IMG/VR virus record: IMGVR_UViG_3300031908_000001 | Coordinates: 32,001-96,000 of that record | From: a virus | Taxonomy: Duplodnaviria > Caudoviricetes | Direction: 5' to 3' (one strand) | Length of the DNA: 64,000 nucleotides | Part shown: one piece after another, positions 3,779 through 57,826 of the stretch | How positions within the stretch are numbered: the first letter of the stretch is position 1 | How the letters are laid out: every line of letters begins with the position of its first letter | The notes under the pieces: generated by a model | The model's database searches: none | Told to the model about the DNA's origin: nothing | What the model saw: the letters and a program-made list of their open reading frames with translations, nothing else | Translations under genes and position numbers: made by a program

Positions 3779-5770
3779 TTATTTTGTTTTTTTAGGTACA
3801 TAAGTTGGATTTACAGATGGTGCGCTTGAGGAATTAAACCAGCTTCCAATTCTAGCCAATCCTGCCTGTAATGTTTGTAAATCACCCTCTATTGACTTAT
3901 TAAATTTTTCAATTGGACCATCTACAAAGAAGCCCTTAAAATCTATTTTATTAAAAGTTTCTTTTATAGCATCTCCCGTAGCTTTCGCAATATCTTTCCC
4001 CATGCTGGTAGCGCCTGAAAGAAGGCCATCATCCTCTATTTTATTAATATATTTCTCACCCTTGTTTACTAAGCCTTCTCCAAGTGGAGCAACTCTATTT
4101 GTCATCTTAGCCGTCAATCTATCAATACTTCCTGTCATTCTAGTTCCGCCTTCAACAAATTGAGAGTCTTGCGTTAATCCATATTTTTTAAATAGTTCAT
4201 TTCTTGATGCTATGTCTGCAAAAGGGTCTTTGCCCTCATTCATTCCTTTTTGATATGAATCGAACAATGCCCCCGATTGATTGGCCGACAATCCAAACAT
4301 TTCTTTTAACATTATTTTTTTATTGCCGGAACTGCCTCCTCTATTGGTTAAATCTTTCATAACCTGAGATAGCGTTCCTTCACCAAAAATTCCCTCTTCT
4401 TGCTTCTTCTGTAGGTCGAAAAGATCGGCATCAGGGTTAAGTTTTCTTAAAGCAGAATAAACCATTGCTTGCTTAAAATCGTTTCCAGGATTAACTATTG
4501 CATTATTCATTGTGCTAATTCTTTCACCTGCGGTTACTGGATTTGCGAAAGTTCCACCTAGTCTCTGGAAGGAGGCTATGACGGATGCATTTGAATTGGT
4601 ATTTACGCTTTCAAGCCTCTTAGACTGATCCTGCATTATGGTAGTCTGAATATGCATAAATTCTTCTAATGAGGCCATATCTTTCCCAGATGCACCAAAT
4701 GCCCCCTCTTGTTTTAAGTATTTAATTAAATTTTGTATATCGCCGGCCGTATCTCTTCTGTTGCTATCTAATCTTTGTAATTTATCAAATCCAAGCAAAG
4801 ACCCATCACTTACTCCATACATTTGCTTAGTCCCCTGCAATCTTAATGCAGCACCCTGAACACTATCTGAAAATCTACCCATTCCGAGGGCATACGCTTC
4901 TGTAGAATATCCACGATTCTTTGCCATCTGAGCGGAAAAATTCATAAATTCTGCTTGATCGACTCCCATTCCTGCTGCCGGTTTTCCAATATCAATGTTT
5001 GGATTACCAGATATTCTTCCTAATGTAAGTCTACTTTCCTGAAGTCTTGATCCCTCCTGAATTAATTTATTTGCTATAGTAGATATGCCCTGACCAATCA
5101 TTGGTATTATAGCAAATGCTGCTGCTGCCATTGCCAATTCATTGCCTTGTGTCGCTATCTGAGCACCATTGTTGAATGCACCAGATGCACTGCCTCCACT
5201 TTTTCTTTTTTCATTTGATTCTGATTCCTTTTTCTCTGCCTTATCTCCTCTCTTATTTGAATTTTTAAATTCTTCTTCTGGATCTATTTCCTTCTTTTTG
5301 CCGCCGAATATTCTTGAAAAAAATGATTGCGTCTTATTTTCTTGGATGTTCTCATCTTTTATCTCCTCTTTTGCAGAAGTTTTAATAGCTTCTACAATCT
5401 CTTTAAGATATTTAACCTGAAGATTGTCTTCTGAAGATTCTTGATTTATATTAGAAAGATCAGATTTATATTTTTTAGCAATCTCATCTCTTTCTATTTT
5501 TGTCTTTGCTGCACTAGATTGAGATTGATAAGCTTTAGATGCTTCAATTTTTCTACCTTCTGTTTCTAGTCTATTTCTTTTATCTATTAAGGCAATCTGT
5601 TCTGACAGGTATTTATTCTGCTCCTTGGCGGAACTAGAATATTTGATTGCATCTGCAATTAAATCTTTGGAAAGATCTTTAGCAGATCTCCTTAATTTAT
5701 CCATTAAGGAAACTACACCATTATCCTGTGCTTCAAATTGTACTCTTTTTGTAGATGAACCTGAACCCAT
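3779..5770 (-). CDS. tail tape measure protein
   Basis: 663 aa helical Ala/Gly/Ser/Lys-rich protein between tail chaperones and hub. Confidence 0.75.
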   Translation of the reverse strand: MGSGSSTKRVQFEAQDNGVVSLMDKLRRSAKDLSKDLIADAIKYSSSAKEQNKYLSEQIALIDKRNRLETEGRKIEASKAYQSQSSAAKTKIERDEIAKKYKSDLSNINQESSEDNLQVKYLKEIVEAIKTSAKEEIKDENIQENKTQSFFSRIFGGKKKEIDPEEEFKNSNKRGDKAEKKESESNEKRKSGGSASGAFNNGAQIATQGNELAMAAAAFAIIPMIGQGISTIANKLIQEGSRLQESRLTLGRISGNPNIDIGKPAAGMGVDQAEFMNFSAQMAKNRGYSTEAYALGMGRFSDSVQGAALRLQGTKQMYGVSDGSLLGFDKLQRLDSNRRDTAGDIQNLIKYLKQEGAFGASGKDMASLEEFMHIQTTIMQDQSKRLESVNTNSNASVIASFQRLGGTFANPVTAGERISTMNNAIVNPGNDFKQAMVYSALRKLNPDADLFDLQKKQEEGIFGEGTLSQVMKDLTNRGGSSGNKKIMLKEMFGLSANQSGALFDSYQKGMNEGKDPFADIASRNELFKKYGLTQDSQFVEGGTRMTGSIDRLTAKMTNRVAPLGEGLVNKGEKYINKIEDDGLLSGATSMGKDIAKATGDAIKETFNKIDFKGFFVDGPIEKFNKSIEGDLQTLQAGLARIGSWFNSSSAPSVNPTYVPKKTK

Positions 5771-5783
5771 TTATTAAGTTGTT

Positions 5784-6140
5784 TTAATCAAATTTTATGT
5801 TATCATCAAAAGCATTCAGATCAATATTATCAAACCGCTCCATTTTTTCTTCTTCCTTAATTTCACTCATCTTTAGCCATTCGCCCGTTTTTTCATATTC
5901 TTTTTTACCACTTTCAAAATCTTCTATATCCTGAAAATATTTTTTAAACATGTTCTCCTCCTCAATCTCAATTTTCATATCAATCAAACACATTTCTCTA
6001 TGTTCACTTGAACCAAAAGAAATATTTCTCTTAAGTCTCCAAATTCTATCAACTGGATATTTATTATTCCAGGAAATGATAAAAGATTTAAGTGACTTAA
6101 GAGAATTATCTTTGTAATTTTTTAATTTTAATTGAGGCAT
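5784..6140 (-). CDS. tail assembly chaperone-like protein
   Basis: Between chaperone and TMP; TAATG overlap with upstream gene. Confidence 0.5.
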   Translation of the reverse strand: MPQLKLKNYKDNSLKSLKSFIISWNNKYPVDRIWRLKRNISFGSSEHREMCLIDMKIEIEEENMFKKYFQDIEDFESGKKEYEKTGEWLKMSEIKEEEKMERFDNIDLNAFDDNIKFD

Positions 6141-6517
6141 TAGTTGCTCTCCTTAATCTCCTCCTCTTCCTCTCTTGAATTTATAACTTTGTCCCATTCT
6201 TCAAACCAAGGAAGAAATTCTTCCTTATAAGCCTTAAGAAGCGGCTTTGCTTCTATCGGAGACAATTCTAAAATGGAATTATATCCCTGAAGATTATCCT
6301 TTAATTTGGGTATAAGAGTAATAAAATATGCAAGCATATCTATTAAATCCAATGCATATACTGAGTTATGATTATTCATTAAAGATAATGACCCATACAT
6401 ATTATTTGCCAGGGCCGCTTTCTTTGTTTCAATATCTAACAATTCTCCTATGTTCGGATATTTAACCTCATAAGACTGTTCTCCTATGTTAACTTTTACT
6501 GTTTTGCTTAATGCCAT
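6140..6517 (-). CDS. tail assembly chaperone
   Basis: 125 aa after the tail tube; VKYPNIGELLDIE motif, acidic C-terminus. Confidence 0.6.
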   Translation of the reverse strand: MALSKTVKVNIGEQSYEVKYPNIGELLDIETKKAALANNMYGSLSLMNNHNSVYALDLIDMLAYFITLIPKLKDNLQGYNSILELSPIEAKPLLKAYKEEFLPWFEEWDKVINSREEEEEIKESN

Positions 6518-26886: not shown

Positions 26887-27042
26887 ACCATTGCGCAACG
26901 GTCTATTATCTAATTAACCGCAGACTTTTTAAGGTCCAACTTTATCACGTTGGATTTTGCTTCTTTAATGCTTGCCGGATATTTTACAACCTCCGACTAG
27001 TTGGCATTGGCTTGACTTAAATTTGACGGTTTACTCAAGTTG

Positions 27043-27117
27043 TGAAAGAGAAGGGAATCGAACCCCTGTTACCCCTGCGCATTACTGCAAATTGTTCTAC
27101 CACTAAACTACTCTCTC
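27043..27117 (-). ncRNA. tRNA-like RNA with non-canonical anticodon arm
   Basis: Acceptor GAGAGAG/CTCTTTC, D arm GTTT-AGTGGTA-GAAC, T arm AGGGG-TTCGATT-CCCTT; no 7-nt U33 anticodon loop. Confidence 0.7.
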
Positions 27118-55657: not shown

Positions 55658-56173
55658 TTAAGATTGTAAATATATTCTTTCTGGTGTTATGTATTTGTAA
55701 TCCTTTCTTATGATCTTGCCCTCCTTATTAGTAACCATTTTAAACTGATGGAGGGGCTTAAGAAAATCTACTTTATTTTTCCATCTTTTATTCATTGTAT
55801 CCTTTACAATGAATTTGCCTGAGAATCTCCACTTATTGCATACGATTGTTATTGTATCTCCGGCCTTATATGGAGCTCCTGGAGTAAATTCTTGCAATAG
55901 GTCCCTGGACAGAGCAACCCATCTTAATTCTCCGCTATTTAGCTTTGCAGGACTAATTATTGATTGATCAAAAGTTTCATATGGTCTTGAATCTGTTTCA
56001 TTGGCAGATGCCGTATAAACAGATCCTTGAGCCTCTTTTAAATTGAAACATTTTTCTTTTATTCTTACCGGCTCTGCATCCACCCTTCTTTCAATGCACT
56101 CATTGTCATTCGGTCTTGCTATTGATATTACTGAAATTAATAATACAATAATTGTTGTTACGATCTTTTTCAT
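55658..56173 (-). CDS. secreted 3D/double-psi beta-barrel (lytic transglycosylase-like) protein
   Basis: Signal peptide; VYTA...ETD, WVALSRDL, VKDTMNKRW...VDFL. Confidence 0.7.
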   Translation of the reverse strand: MKKIVTTIIVLLISVISIARPNDNECIERRVDAEPVRIKEKCFNLKEAQGSVYTASANETDSRPYETFDQSIISPAKLNSGELRWVALSRDLLQEFTPGAPYKAGDTITIVCNKWRFSGKFIVKDTMNKRWKNKVDFLKPLHQFKMVTNKEGKIIRKDYKYITPERIYLQS

Positions 56174-56242: not shown

Positions 56243-57100
56243 TTATTTTACAAACTTTTTAGTTATTAATTTTCCATTTACAATCTCTCTGCTTATTACT
56301 ATTTGTCCAGGCAATTGATCCTGGGCCGATTCATCACCATTAATATCATAAAATCTAATAGATGAATTAATAGCTCCCGAACTTACTATTATGTTTGAAT
56401 ACCATGTAGCACCATTAAAGTCTACTTGCTTTAGTCTAAAATATTTAATTAAGTTACTTAACGACACATCGTGATCATACTTGTATTCAGAATTTGTATT
56501 TGTTCCATATACTCTGAATATTTCTCTAAATAGTAATCCATCTAAACTTTCCTCCAAAACTATATAATCATTATTGAATTCATTATAAGTTATCCACTCA
56601 ATAATATTTCCTTTGATCTGGAATGATTTTAAGACCACTGGAAGAACTTTATTTATGTAGGCATACAAATTATAGTCACAATTAATTAAATCGCTCTCAC
56701 TCCCGTATGTGCCTATAATGGCATTGTTTTTATATGTCGGAGAATAAATAAATCCTCTGCATGGACCCGAAGAAAATGACACGTTATTTTTAACTTTCAA
56801 ATTTCCAGTTATAACTGCCTTTCCTTTGTTAACAATATGCACATCATTTTTGCCCTCAATGCTTCCGTTTATAATTAAAATTCCCTTAATGCCTATGGTT
56901 ATGTTGGCAGTATTTTTAAATTCAACATCCCCTCTAATAACAAGGGTGTCATTAATTACAATATTCACATTTTTTGTAAAAGCAAGATTTCCTTCCTGCA
57001 GCGTGAATGAATTTATGGTTATATTTGATTGGTTCCAGTCTACAGCTTTTGCAGATATGCTTACAAATACGGCCAATAACAAAATTAATATATTCTTCAT
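56243..57100 (-). CDS. secreted beta-solenoid protein with T9SS-cargo-like C-terminus
   Basis: Sec signal (SAKA); LPVVLKSF...IEWIT..EFNND...EESLDG...YFRLKQVDFNG..YS; ends FYDING...TKKFVK. Confidence 0.75.
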   Translation of the reverse strand: MKNILILLLAVFVSISAKAVDWNQSNITINSFTLQEGNLAFTKNVNIVINDTLVIRGDVEFKNTANITIGIKGILIINGSIEGKNDVHIVNKGKAVITGNLKVKNNVSFSSGPCRGFIYSPTYKNNAIIGTYGSESDLINCDYNLYAYINKVLPVVLKSFQIKGNIIEWITYNEFNNDYIVLEESLDGLLFREIFRVYGTNTNSEYKYDHDVSLSNLIKYFRLKQVDFNGATWYSNIIVSSGAINSSIRFYDINGDESAQDQLPGQIVISREIVNGKLITKKFVK

Positions 57101-57826
57101 ATTTTTATTTACTTAATAAAGTTAAGAATTAATTTTTATAATAAAAGTTTTTATTATACTTTTTCCTTACACCATTTTTTGAATGCTTGGACTATTGGAT
57201 TATTATCATCGGCCTTCACGCCTTCAATAAATATATCTCCGGTGCTGGAGAGTTCCAGGAGTGGATTGCCGTCCGCACCCTTGAACATATAAGAATATGA
57301 CTCAAGATATTGCTTTACTCCTATTGTTGGTTTATTTGCCATTATCGATTTGAAAATTTAAATACAAATGTCCAGAATAATACATTTCCAATTTGCAACA
57401 AACAAAATGGTACTGCATCTTCTATGGTAGCGCCTGGGAAATAATTTCCTATCATGGATGCTGCGATTAGGTCCAGCATCAAACACGATATAAATGTAAA
57501 AATAGCTCTTAGCATAATTTTAGGTTTTAAGTTAATTAAAATATTTCTTCTAATGTTGCCTTGAACTTTAGTTCCCTGGCAAATTTTGCTGCCATTCTTG
57601 AGTGATGGTTTATTTCTTCCTGGTAAGATTTTTTGATTTCTCTTGCCATTCCCCCGACTATAATTTGAATTTGATCTTTAGATAAATTCTTAATCTTTGA
57701 TAGCCTTTCTACACATTCATTAATTAATTGTTCTTCGCTTTTCATATATTTAGGTTTTATTAAAATTAAGTTATTTAATATGATAATCCTAATGTTTGTT
57801 AAGTTATTTAATAAAAACTTTTATAA

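Follow-up and report, generated by a model that had tools for sequence, protein, structure and literature searches.

A gene in the window (the whole stretch of 64,000 nucleotides of phage DNA analysed here) encodes a protein of 285 amino acids with the layout of a Bacteroidota type IX secretion system (T9SS) cargo protein and a C-terminal tail far shorter than the type A sorting domain of such cargo. Short tails of this kind are usual in phage contigs and hardly ever seen in bacterial genomes, which argues that the shortening is a phage-associated, maintained feature rather than decay. The explanation preferred here is tentative, its probability as a whole being placed just short of even. The gene would be a genuine, long-resident phage gene with a three-part product predicted to be exported by Sec. 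The protein would descend from the Bacteroidota type A T9SS cargo family, and its tail would be a cut-down derivative of the type A sorting domain, having lost the strands with the YPNP motif and part of the middle. After Sec, the Fn3-like domain and the short tail (mini-tail) would still engage the carrier step of the T9SS and bring a binding-type passenger to the surface. The T9SS reading is supported by an intact single-copy gene with a signal peptide, by homology to T9SS cargo and by the maintained, phage-associated shortening of the tag.

Gene, product and genomic setting

The open reading frame is intact, with an ATG start, 285 codons and a stop. The preliminary description had divided its product into a Sec signal, a beta-solenoid, a domain running from LPV to DFNG and a short tail. 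This division is confirmed by the intact frame, by AF2 and by VIA-align, and the four parts are a Sec signal peptide, a beta-helix, an Fn3-like domain and a tail of about 43 amino acids:

56243..57100, minus strand: whole gene, 285 codons and stop; stop codon at 56243-56245
57044..57100, minus strand: predicted Sec (SPase I) signal peptide, residues 1-19, predicted cut after A-K-A (sequence inspection; low-pLDDT helix 2-10; viral relatives alike)
56702..57034, minus strand: beta-helix (solenoid) passenger, residues 23-133 (AF2 pLDDT about 95; VIA Z 8-9.4; P0005-type homology, E 2e-23)
56654..56698, minus strand: interdomain linker of two short helices with Cys, residues 135-149 (AF2; C141 invariant in alignment A2)
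56375..56644, minus strand: Fn3-like 'pre-CTD' domain, residues 153-242, LPV.L..F ... YFRLKQVDFNG (AF2, VIA-align and phmmer)
56246..56374, minus strand: short C-terminal tail, residues 243-285, with strand 247-251 (motif D) and hairpin 267-274/277-284 ending KKFVK

By inspection, the N-terminus consists of MK, a hydrophobic run and A-K-A before V20; there is no lipobox Cys, as in signal peptides of the SPase I type, and AF2 places a low-confidence helix at residues 2-10. The full-protein AF2 model (92-row alignment, mean pLDDT 83.8) shows the beta-helix as short strands that recur at intervals of 6-7 residues from 26 to 118 at a pLDDT of about 95, followed by a seven-strand sandwich at 156-240 and a tail of low confidence. 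In VIA-align, residues 20-140 match beta-helix folds (adhesin-like, LbH and bactofilin; Z 8-9.4) and residues 153-242 match Fn3-like domains (Z 9-10), both as generic fold matches; the structure-search lists are taken up by matches to the Fn3-like domain, not to the tail. A Foldseek search with the whole model led to insulin-receptor ectodomains at a TM of about 0.2, a candidate likeness rejected as generic to a beta-helix plus Fn3. The 285-aa protein has no significant match in Pfam, NCBIfam or PHROGs, and a PDB sequence search with the module profile gave spurious matches only (E~0.05).

The parent virus record of the window comprises 108,492 bp and is 98% complete; the gene is single-copy there. 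Its neighbours all lie on the same strand and include genes for UvrD-like and SNF2-like helicases, the latter having its best annotated matches in Bacteroides, Cellulophaga and Tenacibaculum phages. The GC content of the gene is 30.2% against 32.8% for the window, and its GC skew is also like that of its neighbours. No tyrosine integrase was found in the phage genome, which is consistent with a lytic lifestyle without proving it, and the genome holds no PorP/SprF-like gene that might supply a phage-encoded carrier. Close relatives of the phage were found neither by megablast nor in the protein cluster of the 285-aa protein, which is a singleton in protein clustering; a helicase-based search of IMG/VR gave one match only, at 36%, and none close. 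ARAGORN reports one tRNA-like gene at 27042-27117 of the window (minus strand), its anticodon undetermined.

The product of the next gene downstream (55658-56173, minus strand) has 171 aa and an evident signal peptide. Searches with it against Pfam and PDB sequences were empty, and its sole match is a PHROG of unknown function. A reading of it as a 3D-domain protein finds no backing, since PF06725 has no match in the whole phage genome. The gene was considered as a partner gene and rejected: none of the fetched loci of the relatives contains a homologue of its product or of the remaining small neighbours, and there is therefore no conserved gene pair.

Upstream of the gene lies a palindrome, reported at first as 18 bp at 57139. 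It exists, is longer than reported, and recurs in the window:

57137..57158, no strand: 22-bp A/T palindrome, its centre 48 nt upstream of the start codon of the 285-aa ORF; one of seven copies
26240, 30323, 34191, 48007, 57140, 57810 and 60984: window positions of the seven copies of the palindrome core

The two arms of 10 nt (57137-57146 and 57149-57158) contain A and T only, are separated by 2 nt, and overlap the stop of an upstream 62-aa ORF. The core, AATAAAA-NN-TTTTATT, is present seven times against 0.44 expected. Every one of the seven copies falls between genes, 34-90 nt upstream of the start codon that follows on the minus strand. The palindrome is a dispersed phage intergenic signal, not a gene-specific operator, and is perhaps a promoter-associated or regulatory site. 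The alternative of an RNA hairpin or terminator was rejected, the fold being weak (z -0.77).

Bacterial relatives and the shortened tail

An exhaustive phmmer search returned 15,485 representative clusters at E<=1e-3, of which 241 reach E<=1e-10; among the matches listed, most were made through the Fn3-like domain. Many of the best full-length relatives are proteins of 350-420 aa with the same beta-helix and Fn3-like domain, and each of those scanned has a type A sorting domain at its end. P0005, the nearest full-length relative, is a chromosomal protein of Cytophagales bacterium Alg240-R148 that matches PF18962; its gene adjoins Suf, GH92 and SusC/D genes. Bacterial loci with relatives belong to Bacteroidota in 78 of 79 cases, the exception being titled Henriciella pelagia. 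The closest bacterial relatives share 33-39% identity with the phage protein (E down to 2e-23). This distance and the phage-like GC content point to an old rather than a recent acquisition. The proposal that a host gene was captured therefore stands in part: the protein is phage-borne and homologous to Bacteroidota type A T9SS cargo, but the capture is not recent, nor is it a one-off, given that 45 of 54 viral tails are short.

The bacterial proteins establish what normally follows the Fn3-like domain. Tails extending 75-105 residues past the DG motif are present in 87 of 89 bacterial ORFs with this domain, and PF18962 matches 57 of the 60 bacterial tails scanned. The preliminary description was right, on these counts, that the domain commonly precedes the type A sorting domain in Bacteroidota. 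The domain itself, about 85 aa long (LPVEL..F ... YYRLKQVD.DG), has no Pfam or NCBIfam model, whether for residues 153-242 of the phage protein or in general, despite more than 15,000 clusters for its carrier.

The type A sorting domain is a seven-stranded beta-sandwich of roughly 70-100 residues (PMC10994853, PMC12618676). Its conserved motifs specify the seven-strand fold, not contacts (Lauber et al. 2024, PMC10994853). Consistent contact with PorV is made by the near-terminal Lys alone, and the translocon is reported to recognize the seven-strand sandwich by its shape (PMC10994853).

The phage protein extends 55 residues past DFNG, about 43 of them past the Fn3-like domain, against 75-105 in bacterial relatives. 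In an alignment with these relatives it lacks YPNP and the first strand pair, and its middle is shortened; the short length and the absence of YPNP had been noted at first sight. The strand ending YD.NG, the L-P-G turn and the final K-rich strand with its near-terminal Lys are kept. The frame stops directly after the K-rich strand, so that the tail lies at the extreme C-terminus. Neither PF18962 nor TIGR04183, the models proposed for checking the tail, matches the 285-aa protein even at E<=1, nor do they match anywhere in the phage genome. Structure prediction, also proposed as a check, is confident for the beta-helix and the Fn3-like fold. For the tail it gives three strands rather than seven (247-251, 267-274 and 277-284) at a pLDDT of only 65-77, in a model of residues 151-285 built from an alignment of 44 modules with short tails, almost all found on viral contigs. 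On this model the tail cannot form the complete seven-strand fold, though the near-terminal Lys is kept. With four strands lost, normal recognition by the T9SS becomes less likely.

Sequence comparison relates the tail to the sorting domain through one segment in particular. By hhalign, the tail aligns with a 60-sequence profile of the C-terminal sorting domain (CTD) at 85% probability over 19 columns, which correspond to the motif-D strand. By BLASTP, it shares 42% identity with the CTD of P0003 over 38 gapped columns (E 0.012). The sorting-domain hallmarks first claimed for the tail hold for the motif-D strand (hhalign 85-94%, including the profile comparison given below) and the near-terminal Lys; they do not extend to a match with any T9SS model or to the full set of strands.

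Short tails among phages

Tails were counted with a single query alignment (A2) run against both IMG/VR and GTDB genomes, with duplicates removed. Of the tails from viral contigs, 45 were short and 9 long; of those from bacterial genomes, 2 were short and 87 long (Fisher p = 1.4e-25), the 2 short ones coming from a single 5.2-kb MAG contig. Relatives are encoded in no fewer than 168 IMG/VR stretches, with the short tail as the dominant viral form, and the architecture cannot be called unusual for a phage, as it had been. Nearly all complete viral ORFs begin with a typical Bacteroidota Sec signal peptide. Their passengers vary, including fn3, CUB and galactose-binding-like domains, and most are unknown. 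None of 44 short-tailed proteins matches PF18962 at E<=0.01, and TIGR04183 matches none of the four viral short-tailed proteins scanned.

The phage mini-tail class is uncatalogued and is defined in the present analysis by alignment A5. Across an alignment of mini-tails, the window tail among them, a single Gly never varies, and conservation reaches at least 90% for another Gly and for a Lys. The mini-tail profile aligns with the CTD profile at the motif-D strand (hhalign, 94% probability, E 1.4e-7). A profile of the tail only recovered 117 proteins at E<=1e-5 among 5.8 billion sequences. All are unnamed or 'hypothetical', none has PF18962 on record, and some lie on contigs of up to 629 kb. Some carry PF23759, PF20009, CUB or PKD passengers, which are families typical of T9SS cargo. 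BFVD and the ESM Atlas repeat this division: viral clusters there have no Pfam family and Bacteroidota clusters have PF18962, and the two alternate among ESM Atlas neighbours. Several of the short-tailed phmmer matches lie on phage-like contigs: the gene for P0152 adjoins a terminase, an HNH endonuclease and a methylase, and that for P0049 adjoins a T4-type RNA ligase, a NUDIX protein and an HD protein. None of the cultured phages in the GenBank collection has the module; the only matches there are uncultured huge phages (LR7452xx/LR7565xx).

Members such as UFOVP1307_140 (P0234, from an uncultured Caudovirales phage) share with the window protein the layout, the viral setting and the Gly/Gly/Lys pattern. 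G255, G276 and K281 of the window tail sit in the invariant or at least 90%-conserved columns. The class extends 46-62 residues past DG, a range that includes the 55 of the window protein. The window tail contains small insertions and non-consensus residues relative to the class and is slightly more CTD-like in sequence (YD.NG, L-P-G and KK near the end). It scores 5.9 bits with a viral mini-tail HMM built without it and 9.4 bits with a CTD HMM; the same mini-tail HMM gives four out-of-sample members 16-48 bits and bacterial CTDs about 0 to 12.5. Judged by sequence, the window tail is a divergent outlier of the phage mini-tail class and is not securely placed within it.

Trees built for the Fn3-like domain and for the beta-helix family have too little resolution to distinguish one origin of the short tail from several. 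Supported branches force at least two changes in the Fn3-like domain tree and at least five in the beta-helix tree, a pattern consistent with C-terminal modules having been shuffled among passengers. Pairs of adjacent mini-tail genes whose passengers differ occur in L027, L028 and L029 (3286-4239 and about 4435-6423) and in L140 (53-1630 and 1844-4411), which suggests small arrays of exported paralogues.

Export, alternatives and known systems

Because the tail is shortened as a rule in phages and seldom in bacteria, phages may use the T9SS, or interfere with it, in a way not described before. The preferred explanation would proceed in four steps. (i) The 285-aa protein would be produced in the infected cell. 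(ii) Sec would carry it across the inner membrane. (iii) The Fn3-like domain and the mini-tail would engage the carrier and translocon of the host T9SS (PorV/SprA), and the passenger would be taken to the surface or the medium. (iv) The beta-helix would then bind a surface or polysaccharide ligand. A broader proposal, possible and distinctly more doubtful than the explanation for the window protein, is that phages of Bacteroidota evolved from the seven-strand type A domain their own minimal tag of about 45 residues and three strands behind the Fn3-like domain, a tag that drives T9SS export or hijacks the PorV/SprA step.

The alternative that survives best, though it is on the unlikely side, holds that the predicted exported protein acts in the periplasm or outer membrane independently of the T9SS. 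The mini-tail would have taken a new role (docking, oligomerization or capping of the Fn3-like domain) inside the envelope of the infected cell. A translocon that recognizes the shape of the CTD (PMC10994853) and a tail that lacks four of seven strands and matches no T9SS model are what this alternative leads one to expect, as is the conservation of the phage class as a distinct family, recovered by a tail-only profile. Set against it is what the tail retains: the motif-D strand, the last hairpin and, at the extreme C-terminus, the Lys that contacts PorV. The passengers moreover include T9SS-cargo families, and cellular relatives are from Bacteroidota at all but one of the 79 loci.

An improbable alternative, raised in the preliminary description, is that the putative cut-down tag binds PorV or the translocon without release and, by jamming the T9SS or masking receptors, blocks export of host receptors, with superinfection exclusion as the result. 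Two studies describe phage-resistant Flavobacterium mutants altered in gliding-motility and T9SS genes (10.1101/2020.10.02.323337; PMC9804748), and a tail that retains the PorV-contacting Lys after losing much of the fold could suit such a role. A plug would not, however, require the diverse and maintained passengers of the viral family, and this diversity argues against a pure plug.

Slightly less probable again is decay, in which only a remnant of a captured host gene would be left, with a tail reduced to a stump without function and a protein without a role. It draws on the position of the window tail as an outlier to both profiles and of the protein as a singleton cluster. The 285-codon frame is nevertheless intact with its signal peptide, the domains fold confidently and the GC content is phage-like; the hallmark Gly, Gly and Lys are kept, and the frame ends in the expected K-rich final strand, not randomly. 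Misassembly of a host fragment into the viral contig, which the preliminary description had named as a possible refutation, has next to no probability, since the gene shares strand, GC content and GC skew with its neighbours, is bordered by helicase genes of the phage and by its dispersed intergenic motif, and has a tail of a form almost restricted to viral contigs.

Two known groups come closest to the protein. Bacteroidota type A T9SS cargo of the P0005 type shares with it the signal peptide, the beta-helix and the Fn3-like domain, as well as the motif-D strand and near-terminal Lys at the C-terminus. The window protein differs in being phage-encoded and in its tail, which has about 43 aa against 75-100, lacks the YPNP strand pair, is predicted to have three strands instead of seven and matches no HMM. 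Phage-encoded cargo with full T9SS tags has been described for Cryophage (Bellas et al. 2020, PMC7468147) and for crAss-like contigs (de Jonge et al. 2019, PMC6949934). These too are phages of Bacteroidota whose secreted proteins, with variable passengers, come from host T9SS cargo. Their sorting domains are recognizable, whereas the window protein and most of its viral relatives have the mini-tail that the models miss. The short-tag form of phage T9SS cargo was not found described in the literature searched.

A conserved tag of half the usual size on many exported passengers would suggest either that a smaller signal suffices for export or that the phage tag engages the machinery differently. 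If the proposal is correct, the phage mini-tag would define the minimal determinants of T9SS recognition and a class of exported effectors specific to phages, with many passengers. The matter is relevant to the ways in which phages reshape or exploit the surface of Bacteroidota that are abundant in water and soil. Current Pfam and NCBIfam models miss both the phage mini-tail proteins and the common bacterial Fn3-like domain before the sorting domain. A second short tail, unrelated in appearance, is also found behind the same Fn3-like domain. It has about 41-49 residues, ends in ...GELRYI.K, and occurs at L006:10001-11278, L005:879-1937 and L010:4318-6462, in bacterial chromosomal contexts and on one 183-kb viral contig.
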